A stretch of DNA of 64,000 nucleotides from Nitrospirota bacterium (GTDB lineage Bacteria > NPL-UPA2 > JAADIA01): the NCBI GenBank assembly GCA_013151555.1, contig JAADIA010000079.1:1699-65698 (forward strand), in the 5' to 3' direction. This document shows, piece after piece, positions 3,779 through 49,782 of this stretch. Within the stretch, counting starts at the first letter, position 1. Every line of letters starts with the position of its first letter. The notes beneath the pieces are model-generated. The model was not told where the DNA came from. It did not search any database and saw nothing but the letters and a program-made list of their open reading frames with translations. The translations under genes were made by a program, and so were the position numbers.

Positions 3779-3812
3779 ACCAGGGACTGAAGAATAAGAA
3801 AAAAGCTGTATA

Positions 3813-4047
3813 GGACGCAGATAAACGCAGATTTAAAGGATTAAAAACACAAGACAACTTTATAATAGTTTCAGATTTTACTCCCTCCTGAGGCGGACAG
3901 GAATTATCAGCAGGGTGAGTTTTAAGAATTAGGAAAAATAAAAAGATTAAACCTTAATTCTTAGTTTATATAAATATTGTCCCGGTAATTTATACTTTGG
4001 GTTCCGGATTTTTAATTATCTGTATCTATCTGCGAATATCTGCGTCC
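3813..4047. repeat. Inverted tandem-unit repeat element (unit ACGCAGAT) with an inner nested palindrome (ttaagaattagg / ccttaattcttag)
   Basis: Forward arm ggacgcagataaacgcagat at 3813-3832; inverted arm atctgtatctatctgcgaatatctgcgtcc at 4018-4047; inner palindrome at 3922-3964. Confidence 0.6.
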
Positions 4048-4116
4048 AAAAAAGAAAGTTTTTATTGTGTTTTTTTGTGTCCTCTGTGGTAACGAAGTTT
4101 TCTTGGAGAAAGAACG

Positions 4117-12776: not shown

Positions 12777-12912
12777 TTGACAGGATTAACAGGATAGACA
12801 GGATAAAATTATTACCTGAATAAGCAAATGAAACAAATTAAAATTAAATTATTACAGGTTTGTCTTTTAGTGGCTCTTTAAAAAATCTTGTTAATCCTGT
12901 TTATCCTGTCAA
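12777..12912. repeat. ACAGGAT-family inverted tandem-unit element (3 units - spacer - 3 inverted units)
   Basis: ttgacaggattaacaggatagacaggat at 12777-12804; atcttgttaatcctgtttatcctgtcaa at 12885-12912; spacer itself holds aattattacctg/aattattacagg. Confidence 0.7.
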
Positions 12913-16282: not shown

Positions 16283-16310
16283 AGGTAAGGTAAAAAAATA
16301 CTATGAAAAC

Positions 16311-16401
16311 CACAGAGACACGGAAGAGCGGAAACACGGAAAAAAGAATTCAGAATGGGAAGAAGTAAAGAGTTGTAAATTAAATTTCCGTGTTTCCGTG
16401 G
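16311..16401. repeat. Inverted tandem-unit element (unit ACGGAAA) between pnp and ileS
   Basis: cacagagacacggaagagcggaaacacggaaaa at 16311-16343; tttccgtgtttccgtgg at 16385-16401. Confidence 0.6.
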
Positions 16402-16443
16402 TTAATTTTTGTAGTATCGTTGTAGAAGGGGAGAGAAATAAGA

Positions 16444-19683: not shown

Positions 19684-20139
19684 ATGGCCATAGTCCTGAC
19701 CGTAAGCAGCCTGCTCTTGCTTATGGACCAGCTTTCTAAATACTATATTGAAAAGTGGCTCTCCCCCGGAGAATCGGTTCCCATCATTAAAAACCTGTTT
19801 CAACTCACCCTCATTCACAATTCCGGAGGAGCCTTCGGTTTATTTCGCCGTTCAGGTTCTTTTCTCTTTATCATCGTTTCGGTTCTGGTTTTAACTTTAA
19901 TTCTCCTTTTTTGGAAAAAGTTTCTTCTGGGAGAGGGTCTGGGAGGAAAGTTAAGCCTTAGCCTTATTATAGGAGGGGCATCGGGAAATCTTGTTGACCG
20001 GTTGAGGTTCGGGCATGTAATTGATTTTTTAGATTTTAGCCTCCGTGGCCATCACTGGCCGGCCTTCAATTTCTCCGATATGGGTATCTCCATCGGGGTA
20101 ATAATTCTCTGTTATAAGATGCTGAAGAAGACCTCCTAA
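19684..20139 (+). CDS. lspA: Lipoprotein signal peptidase II
   Basis: 151 aa; LIHNSGGAFGL, VIDFLDF, NFSDMGISIG motifs; conserved ileS-lspA synteny. Confidence 0.85.
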   Translation: MAIVLTVSSLLLLMDQLSKYYIEKWLSPGESVPIIKNLFQLTLIHNSGGAFGLFRRSGSFLFIIVSVLVLTLILLFWKKFLLGEGLGGKLSLSLIIGGASGNLVDRLRFGHVIDFLDFSLRGHHWPAFNFSDMGISIGVIILCYKMLKKTS

Positions 20140-20176
20140 CCACAGAGGACGTAGAGAAACAAGACCTGAAACTATT

Positions 20177-20285
20177 CTGACAGGATTTACAGGATGAAAA
20201 CTCGATTGAGTCGACTCTGTTGACAGGATTAAAATTTAAGTATAGAAAAAACAAAAAATCTTGTTAATCCTGTTCATCCCGTCAA
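20177..20285. repeat. ACAGGAT-family inverted tandem-unit element with a central GAGTCGACTC palindrome
   Basis: ctgacaggatttacaggatg at 20177-20196; ttgacaggatt at 20220-20230; atcttgttaatcctgttcatcccgtcaa at 20258-20285. Confidence 0.7.
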
Positions 20286-20418
20286 AAATTTTGTAGGATT
20301 TTCTTCGCATCTTCATTCTTTTATATCTTCATGATTATCAGTTATCTTAAACTTCTGTGTTCATCATCAGTGTCTGATTAGTTTTTCCTTTCTCTGTAGT
20401 TGCCAAGGTGTTCTAATC

Positions 20419-24500: not shown

Positions 24501-24521
24501 GAGGCATAGGGATTAAGTGGT

Positions 24522-24648
24522 GAAATCCCAAACTAAAAATCCCAATACTACCAAATAAATCCCAATACCACCAATTTTTGGGGTTTGGTAATACTTGGAT
24601 TTTTGGTTTACGGCGCAAGACGTTTGGGTTTGGTAACTATTGGGATTT
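24522..24648. repeat. CCCAATAC/TTGGTA-family inverted tandem-unit element 3' of pyrC
   Basis: gaaatcccaaactaaaaatcccaatactaccaaataaatcccaataccaccaa at 24522-24574; inverted tttggtaatacttggatttttgg at 24584-24606 and gtttgggtttggtaactattgggattt at 24622-24648. Confidence 0.65.
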
Positions 24649-24659
24649 AGGATTTAACT

Positions 24660-26424: not shown

Positions 26425-26562
26425 AAGGCACAAAGTGACAAAGGCACATAGGCACAAAGGCACAGAGTAACAAAGGCACAAAGGAAAAACAAGAACCAAC
26501 ACTTTTGTACTTTTTTTGGTTTTTAAACTTAGTGCCTCTGTGCCTTAGTGCCTCTGTGCCTG
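26425..26562. repeat. AAGGCACA-family inverted tandem-unit element 3' of pyrD
   Basis: Five forward units (aaggcacaaag, gacaaaggcacat, aggcacaaagg, cacagag, acaaaggcacaaagg) at 26425-26484; inverted agtgcctctgtgccttagtgcctctgtgcctg at 26531-26562. Confidence 0.65.
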
Positions 26563-29130: not shown

Positions 29131-29748
29131 TTGAGCTCTCAAGTAGAGGAGCCCTTGTTTATGCTCAAAGGCAAGGAAATAATTATCGGAGTAACGGGGA
29201 GTATTGCGGCTTATAAATCGGCGGAAATCGTTAGGAGGTTGAAGAATGAAGGAGCCGAAGTGACCGTAATTATGACCGAAAAAGCTACCAAATTTATCAC
29301 TCCTCTCACTTTGGAAACTCTTTCTCGAAACCCGGTTTATTGTTCTCTGTTTTCTGAGGAGCGAGAATGGGACCCTGCTCACATTTCTCTGGCCGGGAGA
29401 GCGGATCTGATTTTGATAGCGCCGGCTACTGCCAATCTCATTGGCAAATTAGCTGCCGGGATAGCTGATGACCTTCTGACAACAACGGTGATGACGGTTA
29501 AGACAATGGTTATTCTTGCTCCGGCTATGAATACCCGGATGTATGAAAATCCTATTCTTCAGGAGAATCTGAACAGACTAAAAAGTTTCGGGTATGAAAT
29601 TATCGAACCCGAATACGGTTTTCTTGCCTGCGGCGAAAAAGGGAAAGGGCGGCTGGCTGATGTTGATACCATTCTTAAAATGGTGGAAGACAATTTTAAC
29701 AGAAGACAGAAGACAGAGAATGGAGAACAGAAAACAGAGAGAATTTGA
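29131..29748 (+). CDS. coaC: Phosphopantothenoylcysteine decarboxylase (flavoprotein)
   Basis: GVTGSIAAYKSAEIVRRL FMN-binding N-terminus; C-terminal tail RRQKTENGEQKTERI is encoded by a GACAGA repeat arm. Confidence 0.8.
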   Translation: MSSQVEEPLFMLKGKEIIIGVTGSIAAYKSAEIVRRLKNEGAEVTVIMTEKATKFITPLTLETLSRNPVYCSLFSEEREWDPAHISLAGRADLILIAPATANLIGKLAAGIADDLLTTTVMTVKTMVILAPAMNTRMYENPILQENLNRLKSFGYEIIEPEYGFLACGEKGKGRLADVDTILKMVEDNFNRRQKTENGEQKTERI

Positions 29749-29785
29749 CGCCTGTCTTCTGGTTTCTGGCAACTGTCCTCTCTGG
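29701..29785. repeat. GACAGA-family inverted tandem-unit element at the coaC/coaB junction
   Basis: agaagacagaagacagagaatggagaacagaaaacagagagaat at 29701-29743; inverted cctgtcttctggtttctggcaactgtcctctctgg at 29751-29785. Confidence 0.7.
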
Positions 29786-29798
29786 TTAGGAGATTGTC

Positions 29799-30503
29799 TT
29801 GAAGAGTAAGAAAGACGGGGTTGTGAGGACAAAGGACCTGGAAGGTAAAAAGGTTCTGGTTACCGCCGGCCCTACCCGGGAACCAATAGATGCAGTCCGC
29901 TTTCTCAGCAATCCTTCTACGGGAAGAATGGGTTTCGCTCTGGCTTCGGCCGCCGAGCGGAGGGGAGCGGAAGTTATTCTCATAAGCGGACCGACGGTTC
30001 TTGTTCCTCCGGAGGGAATAAACTTTATTCGGGTGGGAACGGCTCTGGAGATGTACCAGGCCGTCCTTAGAGAATTGCAAGGGGTAGATATTTTTATAGC
30101 TGCTGCAGCTGTTGCTGATTACCATCCGAAGAAATTTTTTCCGGGTAAGATTAAGAAGCAAGGAAGAAAAAATCTTTTACTCCAACTTCAGCCTAACCCT
30201 GATATTCTCAAGGAAGTGGGCCGGAAGAAAGGAGAGAAAATTCTGATAGGGTTTTCGGCGGAGACTGAGGGCCTGGTAAAGAATGCTTGCCTGAAACTTC
30301 GGGAGAAGAACTTAGACTTTATCGTAGCCAACGATCTGACTCAAGAAGGGTCCGGCTTCGCTTTGGAAACGAACCGGGTTAAAATAATAGATCGAGAAGG
30401 AAGGATAGAAAACCTTCCCTTGATGTCTAAAGCGAAAGTGGCGGAACATATTCTTGACCGGGTGGGGGAGGTAATGAAAAGTCGGAAAGCTCTGGGAGCT
30501 TGA
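29799..30503 (+). CDS. coaB: Phosphopantothenate-cysteine ligase
   Basis: GKKVLVTAGPTREPIDAVRFLSNPSTGRMGFALA matches the CoaB domain of Dfp; encoded separately from coaC. Confidence 0.8.
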   Translation: MKSKKDGVVRTKDLEGKKVLVTAGPTREPIDAVRFLSNPSTGRMGFALASAAERRGAEVILISGPTVLVPPEGINFIRVGTALEMYQAVLRELQGVDIFIAAAAVADYHPKKFFPGKIKKQGRKNLLLQLQPNPDILKEVGRKKGEKILIGFSAETEGLVKNACLKLREKNLDFIVANDLTQEGSGFALETNRVKIIDREGRIENLPLMSKAKVAEHILDRVGEVMKSRKALGA

Positions 30504-36532: not shown

Positions 36533-36544
36533 CAAACTCTATAT

Positions 36545-36576
36545 TTTGGGTTTGGTATTTATTGGGATTTGGGTTT
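36545..36576. repeat. TTGGTA-TTGGGATTT family arm between tRNA-Leu and tRNA-Val
   Basis: tttgggtttggtatttattgggatttgggttt; same family as 24584-24648. Confidence 0.55.
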
Positions 36577-36584
36577 TCCTTGTG

Positions 36585-36658: not shown

Positions 36659-36664
36659 TTATTT

Positions 36665-36753
36665 GACAGAAAACAGAGGACAGATATCAGAAGACAGATG
36701 GATAAAAACAGATGTTTAATATAAGGTTGTTTCTGTTATCTGTCTTCTGTTTA
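36665..36753. repeat. GACAGA-family inverted tandem-unit element between tRNA-Val and thrS
   Basis: gacagaaaacagaggacagatatcagaagacagatggataaaaacagatg at 36665-36714; inverted gtttctgttatctgtcttctgtttag at 36728-36753. Confidence 0.65.
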
Positions 36754-36763
36754 GGGAAAAAGC

Positions 36764-38530: not shown

Positions 38531-38588
38531 GATTAAGAATTAAGAATTAAGAAGAAAAACTTAATACTTACAACTTACAACTTAATTC
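38531..38588. repeat. Inverted tandem-unit element (unit GAATTAAG) immediately 3' of thrS
   Basis: gattaagaattaagaattaagaag then cttaatacttacaacttacaacttaattc. Confidence 0.55.
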
Positions 38589-38631
38589 TGTTTTTTAGAG
38601 GAGGTGACGACTAATAGCTAAAGAAATTAGG

Positions 38632-39126: not shown

Positions 39127-39187
39127 AAGATAGAAAATAGAAGACAGGGAGTAGAGGACCGAAGAGTTTGACTTCTATCATCTGTGG
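39125..39187. repeat. GACAGA/AGATAGA-like inverted element 3' of infC (arm overlaps infC stop)
   Basis: agaagatagaaaatagaagacaggg at 39125-39149; inverted cttctatcatctgtgg at 39172-39187. Confidence 0.5.
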
Positions 39188-39201
39188 TAAGGAGAACGAA
39201 A

Positions 39202-39399
39202 GTGCCTAAGTTGAAAACTAAGCGAGGAGCAGCCAAAAGGTTCAAGGTGACCAAATCGGGAAGGATTGGAAGAAAAAAAGCTTGTGCCAGTCATATTCTG
39301 ACGAAGAAGTCCTCTAAACGTAAACGGGGACTAAGGCAGGCAGACACTGTTAGCAAAGCGGATAGAAAAGCAATTAAACTTCTGCTACCTTATGCTTGA
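39202..39399 (+). CDS. rpmI: 50S ribosomal protein L35
   Basis: GTG 39202 with AAGGAG 7 nt upstream gives [22 protein letters not shown]. Confidence 0.85.
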
Positions 39400-39406
39400 A
39401 ACAGAT

Positions 39407-39577
39407 GGTTGAAAGTTAAGGTTGTAAAGTCTAAAGTAAAAAAACTTTTGGAAGAAGATATTTGTAAGTTTGAGATATAAGGTTTTTAAGTATAAGCCCC
39501 GGGTTGTCTAAGATTTAGGCAAGGTTTTTATTGTTTTCTTGCTTTTAACTTTCGACCTTCAATTTTAAACTATCAAC
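39407..39577. repeat. GGTTGAAAGTTAAGG-family inverted element between rpmI and rplT
   Basis: ggttgaaagttaaggttgtaaagtctaaagt at 39407-39437; inverted cttttaactttcgaccttcaattttaaactatcaac at 39542-39577. Confidence 0.6.
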
Positions 39578-39602
39578 TGTCTTTTGAGAAGGAGAATAAA
39601 AA

Positions 39603-40656: not shown

Positions 40657-40839
40657 AAATATTCAAGAATGCTTTGTCTGCTGAGTAGGTGTTTCGGTTA
40701 TTCGAAAATTGTCCTTCGACTTTGCTCAGGGTGGTGAGCTTTTCGAAACCATTTCGAATTTCGTGCTTCGAGCTTCGGGATTCGGATTTTTTTAATAGTA
40801 TCTAAAGTTCAAGGATAATGAATATTAGCAGGAGATAAG

Positions 40840-44713: not shown

Positions 44714-44738
44714 GTTTGCTACCTCCTTCGGAAGTTAA

Positions 44739-44824
44739 GACTATAGACTATAGACCATAGACTAAACGAGGGGAAAAGGGATGGTGAAAAGTCTAAAGTC
44801 TGATGTCTATGGTCTATTGTCTGA
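44739..44824. repeat. Inverted tandem-unit element (unit CTATAGA) between pheS and pheT
   Basis: gactatagactatagaccatagactaaa at 44739-44766; inverted agtctaaagtctgatgtctatggtctattgtctga at 44790-44824. Confidence 0.6.
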
Positions 44825-44849
44825 ATTGAGTTCTTGAAAAGAGGTAAGA

Positions 44850-46588: not shown

Positions 46589-46739
46589 GGACAGGATTAA
46601 CAGGATGTACAGGATAATTTTCTTAAAGAATTTTAGTTGGGGAAACTTTACAAAACTTTTTGAATTTTGTAAAATCAGCTTTTATCCTTTGATTTAATTA
46701 AAAGAATAAAAATCCGGTAAATCCAGTAAATCCTGTCAA
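46589..46739. repeat. ACAGGAT-family inverted tandem-unit element 3' of pheT
   Basis: ggacaggattaacaggatgtacaggat at 46589-46615; inverted atccggtaaatccagtaaatcctgtcaa at 46712-46739; spacer contains tttacaaaa/ttttgtaaa palindrome. Confidence 0.7.
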
Positions 46740-46783
46740 TTTTAGAGTTGCCGCTGTAGACGGCCTAAGTTTGGAGAGAAGTC

Positions 46784-49227: not shown

Positions 49228-49350
49228 ATTGTAAATTGAAGATTGGAAATTGGAAATTTTAAAATGGAAGAGAAGAAATGAGATTCAATCTTTTTTGATT
49301 TATTTCAATAAGTTTAAAATTTACAATTCTCAATTTACAATTCGAGCGAA
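49228..49350. repeat. Inverted tandem-unit element (unit ATTGGAA / TTGTAAAT) upstream of rpsP
   Basis: attgtaaattgaagattggaaattggaaatttt at 49228-49260; inverted aaaatttacaattctcaatttacaattc at 49323-49350. Confidence 0.6.
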
Positions 49351-49377: not shown

Positions 49378-49665
49378 GTGGCTGTAGTTATTAGATTGAA
49401 AAGAATGGGAGCGAAGAAAAGACCTTTTTATCGATTGATCGTAGCTGATTCCCGTATGCCCCGGGATGGCCGGTTTATCGAGACTATTGGTCTATATAAT
49501 CCTTTAGAAAATCCTTCTAAGATTTCTGTTAGTCAGGAAAAAGCTCTTTATTGGCTGAAACAGGGAGCGAAACCATCTCCGACAGCAAAACAGATTCTGA
49601 GGAAGAGCGGAGTTTGGGAGAAGTTTAAACCACAGAAAGTACAGAAGACAGAGAATAAAGAATAG
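49378..49665 (+). CDS. rpsP: 30S ribosomal protein S16
   Basis: GTG start; [43 protein letters not shown] canonical; C-terminal tail QKTENKE encoded by repeat arm. Confidence 0.9.
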
Positions 49666-49764
49666 AAGACAGAGAACAGATGACAGAAATAATCTTATAT
49701 TGAACGGCTGTTTTTATACGTCTGTCTCTTGATTTCTGACATCTGATGTCTGTTTCCTCTGTGG
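49664..49764. repeat. GACAGA-family inverted tandem-unit element 3' of rpsP
   Basis: agaagacagagaacagatgacagaaat at 49664-49690; inverted cgtctgtctcttgatttctgacatctgatgtctgtttcctctgtgg at 49719-49764. Confidence 0.7.
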
Positions 49765-49782
49765 TTAAGGAAATTTCTTGCT

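Follow-up and report, generated by a model that had tools for sequence, protein, structure and literature searches.

A decayed dispersed repeat that probably entered the overlap of already separate coaC and coaB genes in a Nitrospirota bacterium

We analyzed the junction between coaC and coaB, which encode phosphopantothenoylcysteine decarboxylase (PPCDC) and phosphopantothenate-cysteine ligase (PPCS), in a 64,000-nucleotide (nt) stretch of a Nitrospirota bacterium (assembly GCA_013151555.1, contig JAADIA010000079.1, positions 1,699 to 65,698), hereafter the window, where a repeat element made of two inverted arrays of heptamers lies between the two genes and extends into coaC (Table 1). Both genes stand alone and look intact. 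CoaC holds a full-length Pfam Flavoprotein domain (PF02441, residues 15-187, model positions 1-160 of 162, E-value 5.3e-36, 124 bits against a cutoff of 22.7), and CoaB a full-length DFP domain (PF04127, residues 14-197, model positions 1-186 of 186, E-value 1.8e-70, 237 bits against a cutoff of 22). The mechanically called open reading frame (ORF) of coaC opens at TTG 29131 and has 205 residues; the publicly annotated protein has 195 and is identical to P0121. The TTG start of coaB is placed 6 nt past its Shine-Dalgarno (SD) sequence.

coaC is read in frame 1 and coaB in frame 0, with a gap of 50 nt between them, and an earlier reading of this DNA, made from the letters and the ORF list (the sequence-only reading), was thus right to treat them as separate ORFs in different frames. 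It had also raised the question of a fused product. Three-frame translation places stops in every frame within 29746-29809, and because all three frames are closed between the genes, a CoaC-CoaB fusion by read-through or a single frameshift is impossible. Neither ORF carries both domains on one polypeptide, as a bifunctional CoaBC (Dfp) does. Frame 2 is open over the whole element as a 71-residue ORF (29594-29809) that ends 8 nt past the coaB start; the scarcity of stops in the purine and pyrimidine arrays probably accounts for it.

The left arm of the element wholly encodes the end of CoaC, RRQKTENGEQKTERI (29701-29745), so that the peptide finishes in ...QKTENGEQKTER. This tail is unique among the best 120 CoaC homologues, save for that of a near-identical contig, L001. 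The sequence-only reading had proposed that an inverted tandem repeat fills the gap together with the last 15 codons of coaC. All 15 codons do lie within the left arm, and both arms are present, but they are only loosely complementary: their best pairing covers 17 nt at 88%, and the fold does not surpass those of dinucleotide shuffles (z -0.94 and -1.16 in two computations), which puts this copy among the three weakest folders of 16 elements folded. Candidate terminal inverted repeats of the kind found in miniature inverted-repeat transposable elements (MITEs), AACCACAGAG / CTCTGTGGTT, have 8 matches against 1.3 expected, and the ends of the junction copy are degenerate forms of them (TTAACAGAAG / CTCTCTGGTTA). 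Rfam finds only three tRNAs in the whole window, with best local matches of at most 15 bits, and 29690-29800, where the right arm is followed by GGTTAGGAG, contains no terminator-like site (a G+C-rich stem plus U tract); neither a known RNA family nor an intrinsic terminator was found. A 14-codon mini-ORF in frame 0 has a TTG that overlaps the coaC TGA and a TAG that overlaps the coaB SD. The rpsP/trmD copy described below has no equivalent, and a role of the mini-ORF as a coupling ORF, as in mycobacterial interspersed repetitive units (MIRU), is speculative.

The element belongs to a family that recurs in the window. The motif AGACAGAAGACAGA, with at most two mismatches, has eight matches at three loci where 0.68 are expected, and 0 of 100 shuffles reached eight. 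One further copy lies in the tRNA-Val/thrS gap, as had been noted from the sequence, and another in the rpsP/trmD gap. The left arm of the latter encodes a tail of ribosomal protein S16; the earlier reading had recognized this tail as repeat-encoded, but had placed it at 49664-49690, and the rpsP stop is the TAG at 49663-49665, so that the tail is 49628-49662. The rpsP/trmD copy is the closest paralogue of the junction copy. Local alignment of the two gives z 8.8 for the left arm and z 11.4 for the right arm, exceeds the periodic unit, and continues through GGTTAGGAGATTGTCTTG versus GGTTAAGGAAATTTCTTG, therefore taking in the SD and the TTG. Because the alignment spans both arms, SD and TTG, we regard the two copies as paralogues, and this likeness suggests that the initiation signals of coaB are probably element-borne. 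At trmD the corresponding TTG does not lie in the reading frame and goes unused. The peptide QKTEN is common to the tails of CoaC and S16 (29709-29723 and 49644-49658), since CAGAAGACAGAGAAT has the same reading frame in each copy.

The gap between tRNA-Val and thrS measures exactly 105 nt both in the window (36659-36763) and in a relative, L002 (2139-2243), with its edges kept (ATTATTT... and ...GGRRAAAGCATG) and its internal hairpins wholly different. The content of this gap turns over while its length stays fixed.

We then compared the junction DNA of nine relatives, obtained via exact-protein look-ups; scans of genomes and metagenomes with CoaB yielded little besides distant fused relatives. 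CoaB homologues with at least 69% identity all have 203-235 residues and only the DFP domain. P0014, an apparently split CoaB at 59% identity, was rejected as a truncated copy of a fused gene. In four relatives, L004 and L169 (CoaB identity 76-78%) and L166 and L168 (73-74%), coaC and coaB overlap by 29-56 nt and there is no inverted repeat. In all four, coaB is shifted to the +1 frame with respect to coaC, a candidate coaB ATG is embedded in the coaC codons GAT-GTC, and the coaC stop TAA falls inside the codons for the conserved L-K-G-K of CoaB (GGTAAG). Read in the coaC frame, these L-K-G-K codons give ...KR, and the same ending in several CoaC proteins that are more distant suggests that the overlap is older still. 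The remaining relatives carry elements at the junction. L001, from an independent sample and 96% identical in CoaB, carries the element of the window but for two substitutions; L002/L003 and L173 (77%) have a 170-300-nt composite element of CACAGAG and AC(G/A)CAGA units; L167 (71%) has a 111-nt hairpin of GGTTCAAGG units; and L170, the outgroup, has a GCAACCTTTAGGTTGC hairpin that recurs at another locus in L166. The two differences of L001 within the element, T29721C and A29772T, are not partners in the minimum-free-energy fold, and one of them changes a G-U pair to G-C; a single comparison of this kind is uninformative about compensatory change.

A neighbor-joining tree of concatenated CoaC and CoaB (384 ungapped columns, bipartition bootstrap) groups L004, L169 and L173 (100%), joins the window to them (100%), groups L166, L168 and L167 (100%), and leaves L170 outside. 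Within both subclades, genomes with an element are nested among the overlap types. Homology holds among the overlap junctions but not among the junction elements, those of the window, L002/L173, L167 and L170 being different families. Because element-bearing genomes nest among mutually homologous overlap junctions, the overlap is ancestral, and the junction has been colonized independently at least three times, four counting L170. Overlap-type genomes carry such hairpins at other junctions, for instance at L166 654-736, so their empty coaC/coaB junction is not due to absence of the class.

Several observations on these relatives stand beside this comparison. The overlaps at L004 2470-2530, L169 1385-1441 and L168 2040-2094 contain runs of seven A (none in L166 2501-2556), and all four end in AAA-AGG-TAA. 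In these genomes a canonical fused CoaBC would result from a +1 slip on A-AAA-A or from slippage during transcription; conservation of the A-run and of AAA-AGG-TAA could equally be a coding constraint of L-K-G-K. The hairpin of L170 (10556-10644, coaC/coaB junction) and that of L166 (1805-1971, rpoZ-coaC gap) have the form GG(T/A)TAGCCG(C/T)AACCTT(T/C)AGGTTGCGTGAAA, and represent another dispersed family in the lineage. The pyrE/yicC gap of L004 (785-856) holds six tandem TAAACTGT-like 8-mers with no inverted partner, and the orthologous gap at L166 654-736 a near-perfect inverted array of AGTCCAT units. In GCA_021129635.1 the coaB contig begins within the junction element (L002 1-20), and another contig ends partway through coaC (P0140 / P0242).

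Ancestrally, coaC and coaB thus overlapped over 29-56 nt, coaB being read in the +1 frame and coaC ending within GGTAAG. In the window lineage the linker of about 45 nt between ...V-E-D and L-K-G-K... has been replaced by the element. With its former stop gone, coaC continues across the left arm as far as the TGA in the loop and has gained a hydrophilic tail; the old embedded ATG of coaB is gone (GAAGACAATTTT), and coaB now begins at TTG.

The element is one of many in the window. When the 40 intergenic gaps of at least 45 nt were surveyed, in combination with Tandem Repeats Finder (TRF), a pervasive architecture emerged: a short tandem array (7-9-nt units), a loop and an inverted array, with a unit that varies by locus (some of these units are listed in Table 1). 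Every such element lies between co-directional genes, including inside thrS-infC-rpmI-rplT and both upstream and downstream of rpsP, and 13 of the 16 elements folded have z of -2.4 or below (lowest -7.4). By a strict TRF criterion, the 64-kb window holds five inverted array pairs and 835 kb of unrelated loci hold four. For the outer motif CTCTGTGGTWA, counted with its complement, the window has 8 occurrences where 1.3 are expected, a density about 12 times that of the 835 kb of unrelated bacterial loci.

The strongest evidence for dispersal comes from a 300-nt element at 3796-4108, between an aminotransferase gene and purC. The junction elements of L002 and L173 align to it over 190-300 nt (z 30 and 21), and because they match a whole element at a different locus, a copy-and-paste nature of the repeat is indicated. 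The common layout is one of outer CACAGAGG units, inner ACGCAGA units and an AT-rich loop (window 3796-4108; L002 1-300; L173 619-810), and it recurs in a viral contig of 60% G+C, L190 (1400-1590). A right end of the form GTGTCCTCTGTGGT(R)A(.)GRAGTTTTCTTG is common to the junction copy, the L002/L173 junction element and the 3796-4108 element, and its positions include window 4076-4105 and, in L002 and L173, the region upstream of coaB.

The 14-mer GTGTCCTCTGTGGT matches at least 120 viral contigs (L174-L293, IMG/VR), many of which are interrelated, so that this count does not equal a number of independent lineages. Among the matches listed, 67 of 131 sites share the longer consensus CTC(C/T)GTG-YYCTCT-GTGTCCTCTGTGGT-(T/C)A, and several contigs have 2-3 copies, mostly as single arrays, with a full hairpin in few (L190, L253, L229). 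The contigs bearing the end motif have 45-69% G+C. In some, the complement of the 14-mer sites would encode an N-terminal MTTEDTEDTE. Naive ORF calling left the gene context of the viral 14-mer sites unreadable, with spurious ORFs in high-GC DNA. L170 contains an rve-type integrase, for which no link to the elements was established. CAGGAUG repeats typify CsrB-type RNAs that act as sponges for CsrA; the ACAGGAT(N)(N) arrays at 12780-12807, 20180-20235 and 46591-46615 resemble such repeats, but are paired with their own complement in the stem. For heptamer arrays, CsrA-like binders have been proposed by MacGregor (PMC4679880).

Table 1. Features of the coaC/coaB junction and of related arrays, in window coordinates.
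Feature	Position	Strand	Remark
coaC (phosphopantothenoylcysteine decarboxylase), stand-alone	29161..29748	+	ATG 29161 is the public annotation start; stop TGA 29746-29748
CoaC C-terminal tail NFNRRQKTENGEQKTERI	29692..29745	+	18 residues beyond the Pfam domain; last 15 codons (29701-29745) are left-arm heptamers
Left arm, six tandem purine-rich heptamers	29701..29742	+	AGAAGAC x2, AGAGAAT, GGAGAAC, AGAAAAC, AGAGAGA; TRF period 7, 5.9 copies
Loop ATTTGACGC	29743..29751	+	9 nt; holds the coaC stop TGA (29746-29748)
Mini-ORF, 14 codons, frame 0	29745..29789	+	TTG ACG ... GGT TAG; from frame-0 translation
Right arm, five pyrimidine-rich heptamers	29752..29786	+	CTGTCTT CTGGTTT CTGGCAA CTGTCCT CTCTGGT; loosely complementary to left arm
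Right terminus CTCTCTGGTTAGGAGATTGTCTTG	29778..29801	+	terminal motif (family consensus CTCTGTGGTTA), SD AGGAG (29788-29792), coaB TTG (29799-29801)
coaB (phosphopantothenate-cysteine ligase), stand-alone	29799..30503	+	TTG start; 234 residues, identical to P0001
Second ACAGA-family copy, tRNA-Val/thrS gap	36664..36752	+	strong hairpin, fold z -5.7
Third ACAGA-family copy, rpsP/trmD gap	49628..49770	+	left arm encodes 11-residue S16 tail (49628-49662); fold z -3.3
Unit ACAGGATAA	12780/12884, 20180-20290, 46591/46710
Unit AAGGCACA	26425/26532
Unit AGACTAT	44738/44788
Unit ATTGGAA	49228/49313
Unit ACACGGA	16310/16385
Unit TTAAGAA	38531
Array-hairpin gaps, part 1	2435-2500, 3796-4108, 12780-12909, 16303-16410, 20137-20410, 24520-24655, 26425-26561, 36533-36584
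Array-hairpin gaps, part 2	38531-38590, 39127-39192, 39395-39590, 40680-40800, 44738-44830, 46591-46740, 49228-49342

We consider it likely that the element is a decayed copy of a dispersed, hairpin-forming intergenic repeat that entered the short overlap of already separate coaC and coaB genes. The incoming copy would have consisted of two inverted arrays of tandem units of about 7 nt with AACCACAGAG / CTCTGTGGTT-like ends, and the SD and TTG would have come with it. Before its insertion the two overlapping genes would have been translationally coupled; afterwards each would have been a cistron with its own initiation, on a single mRNA. The 18-residue hydrophilic tail of CoaC is presumably tolerated rather than functional, and the hairpin may have decayed since insertion with the parts needed for coding and initiation kept, leaving a copy that would now be nearly neutral. 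The family could have spread by transposition in trans, or by recombination or template switching. At the RNA level, our best guess for intact members is a REP-like intercistronic stem-loop. The same structure in L001, on an independent contig, supports this account of the junction.

A number of points weigh against it. First, alignments of filled and empty sites define no target-site duplication or clean boundary, because the whole linker from ...VED to LKGK... has been remodeled, and the purine-rich linker can be aligned with one flank of the element or the other. Second, the ancestral linker contains AAGACAGAGAAAGG, which resembles the left arm, so that part of this arm could be native sequence expanded in place. 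Third, no transposase or mobilizing gene was identified in the 64-kb window, where RAYT was not sought. Fourth, donation of an SD is not general, since the copy at thrS relies on native signals, an SD and an ATG also conserved in L002. Fifth, an RNA-level role of the junction copy is doubtful because its fold is no better than shuffles. Finally, the neighbor-joining tree draws its 384 columns from a small taxon sample.

An origin in place is the first alternative to consider. Here the purine-rich linker would have expanded by slippage and the inverted arm would have arisen by template switching at a quasi-palindrome, with the likeness between loci due to convergence. The overlap-type linker does contain AAGACAGAGAAAGGGAAGG, near to left-arm units, each locus in the window has its own unit sequence and a period of 7-9 nt, as local slippage predicts, and the missing target-site duplication fits as well. 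In addition, according to Mrazek (2007), as quoted in PMC4679880, no long simple repeats are more common in bacteria than tandem repeats of a heptamer. Weighing against this reading are a right arm and terminus that match the rpsP/trmD copy beyond the unit, including GGTTTCTGGCAACTG versus GATTTCTGACATCTG, SD and TTG (z 11.4), a 300-nt composite element common to the L002 junction and another window locus (z 30), and the same architecture in the unrelated high-GC viral contigs L190 and L253. We therefore judge an origin entirely in place unlikely, while a partial one, by slippage, is a live minor alternative.

Somewhat less probable still is that the element is a selected cis-regulatory RNA, a stem-loop with a part in fixing the ratio of coaC to coaB expression, in blocking exonucleases, in transcript processing or in coupling coaB translation to coaC. 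The confinement of all elements to gaps between co-directional genes, several of them in conserved operons (thrS-infC-rpmI-rplT, rpsP-trmD), is in keeping with such a role, as are the good folds of 13 of the 16 elements, the coaC stop in the loop and the mini-ORF that bridges this stop and the coaB SD. The junction copy itself is nevertheless among the weakest folders (z -1.2), its closest relatives have no element or unrelated ones, and the absence of an Rfam match or terminator-like site also argues against regulation. A mechanism in which translation of coaC melts the stem to free the coaB SD is unsupported: the predicted unpaired probability of the SD is 0.58 with the left arm and 0.21 without it, so the hairpin does not lower accessibility.

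The sequence-only reading had offered two origins for the junction, insertion of the element into the interdomain linker of an ancestral fused coaBC, which would have created the split, or tolerance at a pre-existing junction. The former has an obvious appeal, given that fused CoaBC is the prokaryotic norm (PMC7794376), that CoaB homologues at 61% identity or below are fusions of about 400 residues, and that the element sits exactly at the domain boundary. It is very unlikely. That reading had itself recognized that split relatives with no repeat at the junction would indicate a split unrelated to the element, and four relatives at 73-78% CoaB identity (L004, L169, L166 and L168) are of this kind. 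Stand-alone CoaC, moreover, is found in 104 of the best 120 homologues and reaches down to about 55% identity, and the tree puts overlap types on both sides of the window lineage. It is the second origin that holds, and it can be sharpened to replacement of a 29-56-nt ancestral overlap. Split coaB and coaC also occur in streptococci and enterococci. Split PPCS and PPCDC genes are further known in Mycoplasma iowae (PMC8721197), which shares with the present case the occurrence of separate genes where relatives have a fusion, but belongs to another lineage; the ancestral split here is an out-of-frame overlap with the coaC stop inside the coaB LKGK codons.

An assembly or sequencing artefact, in which a frameshift error in a low-complexity stretch mimics a split, can be set aside as next to negligible: tandem repeats are error-prone and the L002 contig breaks inside its junction element, but the same structure is present in the independent sample and contig L001, stops close all three frames, and the split is lineage-wide.

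We compared the element with known systems of short intergenic repeats. REP sequences have a conserved 5' tetranucleotide, GTAG, and the cyanobacterial STRR is another intergenic heptamer tandem repeat. In position the element is like MIRU, which, as far as the account of Supply et al. (1997) given in PMC3184786 goes, are repeats within polycistronic operons whose ends overlap the upstream stop and downstream start. As described there, MIRU and our element are alike in being short (40-100 bp) and intercistronic and in having imperfect inverted repeats, both terminal and internal, with ends over the stop and start of the neighbors and empty sites in relatives; at the coaC/coaB junction the coaC stop lies in the loop and the coaB TTG at the right end, between co-directional neighbors. 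On the same account, MIRU differ in having G+C-rich direct units, often in tandem and each with a defined mini-ORF, and the sequences are unrelated; our element has inverted arrays of 7-nt units, and a bridging mini-ORF occurs only in the junction copy. REP/BIME (PMC3333891) are likewise abundant, transcribed intergenic imperfect palindromes between co-directional genes in operons, with families at different loci in related genomes, but a REP is a single palindrome of 20-40 nt with a Y1 transposase (RAYT), whereas the elements here have variable tandem-unit arms and span 60-300 nt.

The bacterial MITEs (Correia/NEMIS, Nezha, ERIC and others; PMC3184786) have terminal inverted repeats, for which the family here has candidates, and share a long RNA stem-loop, filled and empty sites and fusion to the 3' ends of ORFs; in contrast to them, our element has no target-site duplication that we could find and no known parent insertion sequence, and its interior is made of short tandem units that differ between copies. 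Neisseria REP2 (PMC3184786) is also dispersed and carries a ribosome-binding site and start fused to a downstream ORF, but is a promoter and 5'-untranslated-region module of ~120-150 bp upstream of virulence genes, not a hairpin between overlapping housekeeping genes. The TAACTGA repeats of the Beggiatoaceae (PMC4679880) form 7-nt tandem arrays within a few nucleotides of start codons, including those of ribosomal-protein operons, and have a patchy phylogeny. They are, however, direct arrays of one fixed heptamer, with one indirect repeat among 170 sets (PMC4679880), whereas nearly every array in the window has an inverted partner and the unit changes by locus. We found no description in the literature of the end motif or of inverted arrays with variable short units. 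The element is therefore ordinary in kind, a REP-, MIRU- or MITE-like junction repeat fused to the ends of its neighbors, and unusual in build.

More tentatively, the junction copy may be one member of an undescribed, widespread class of mobile intercistronic junction cassettes, variable-unit inverted-array hairpins with conserved ends. On the left, TAA-CCACAGAG would abut or supply a stop, and on the right CTCTGTGGTTAAGGAG-N6-TTG would give an SD and a TTG. The end motif in many viral contigs hints at horizontal spread of such cassettes. If they exist, they could insert between or into overlapping genes while inactivating neither, and repeatedly rewire operon junctions.

For coenzyme-A biology the finding is of little consequence, since the split is old and both enzymes look intact. 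It calls for caution in annotation, as C-terminal tails and TTG starts beside such arrays are repeat-derived, and in assembly, as contigs break at these elements, L002 being one. As a case of gene-boundary evolution, the junction is a clean natural experiment, in which an ancestral overlap can be seen beside at least three, probably four, independent replacements by hairpin repeats; CoaC acquired a new C-terminus in each of them, and coaB a new TTG start in three. The wider class of inverted-array repeats, which fills many intergenic gaps in this genome, is a more interesting lead than the copy between coaC and coaB.

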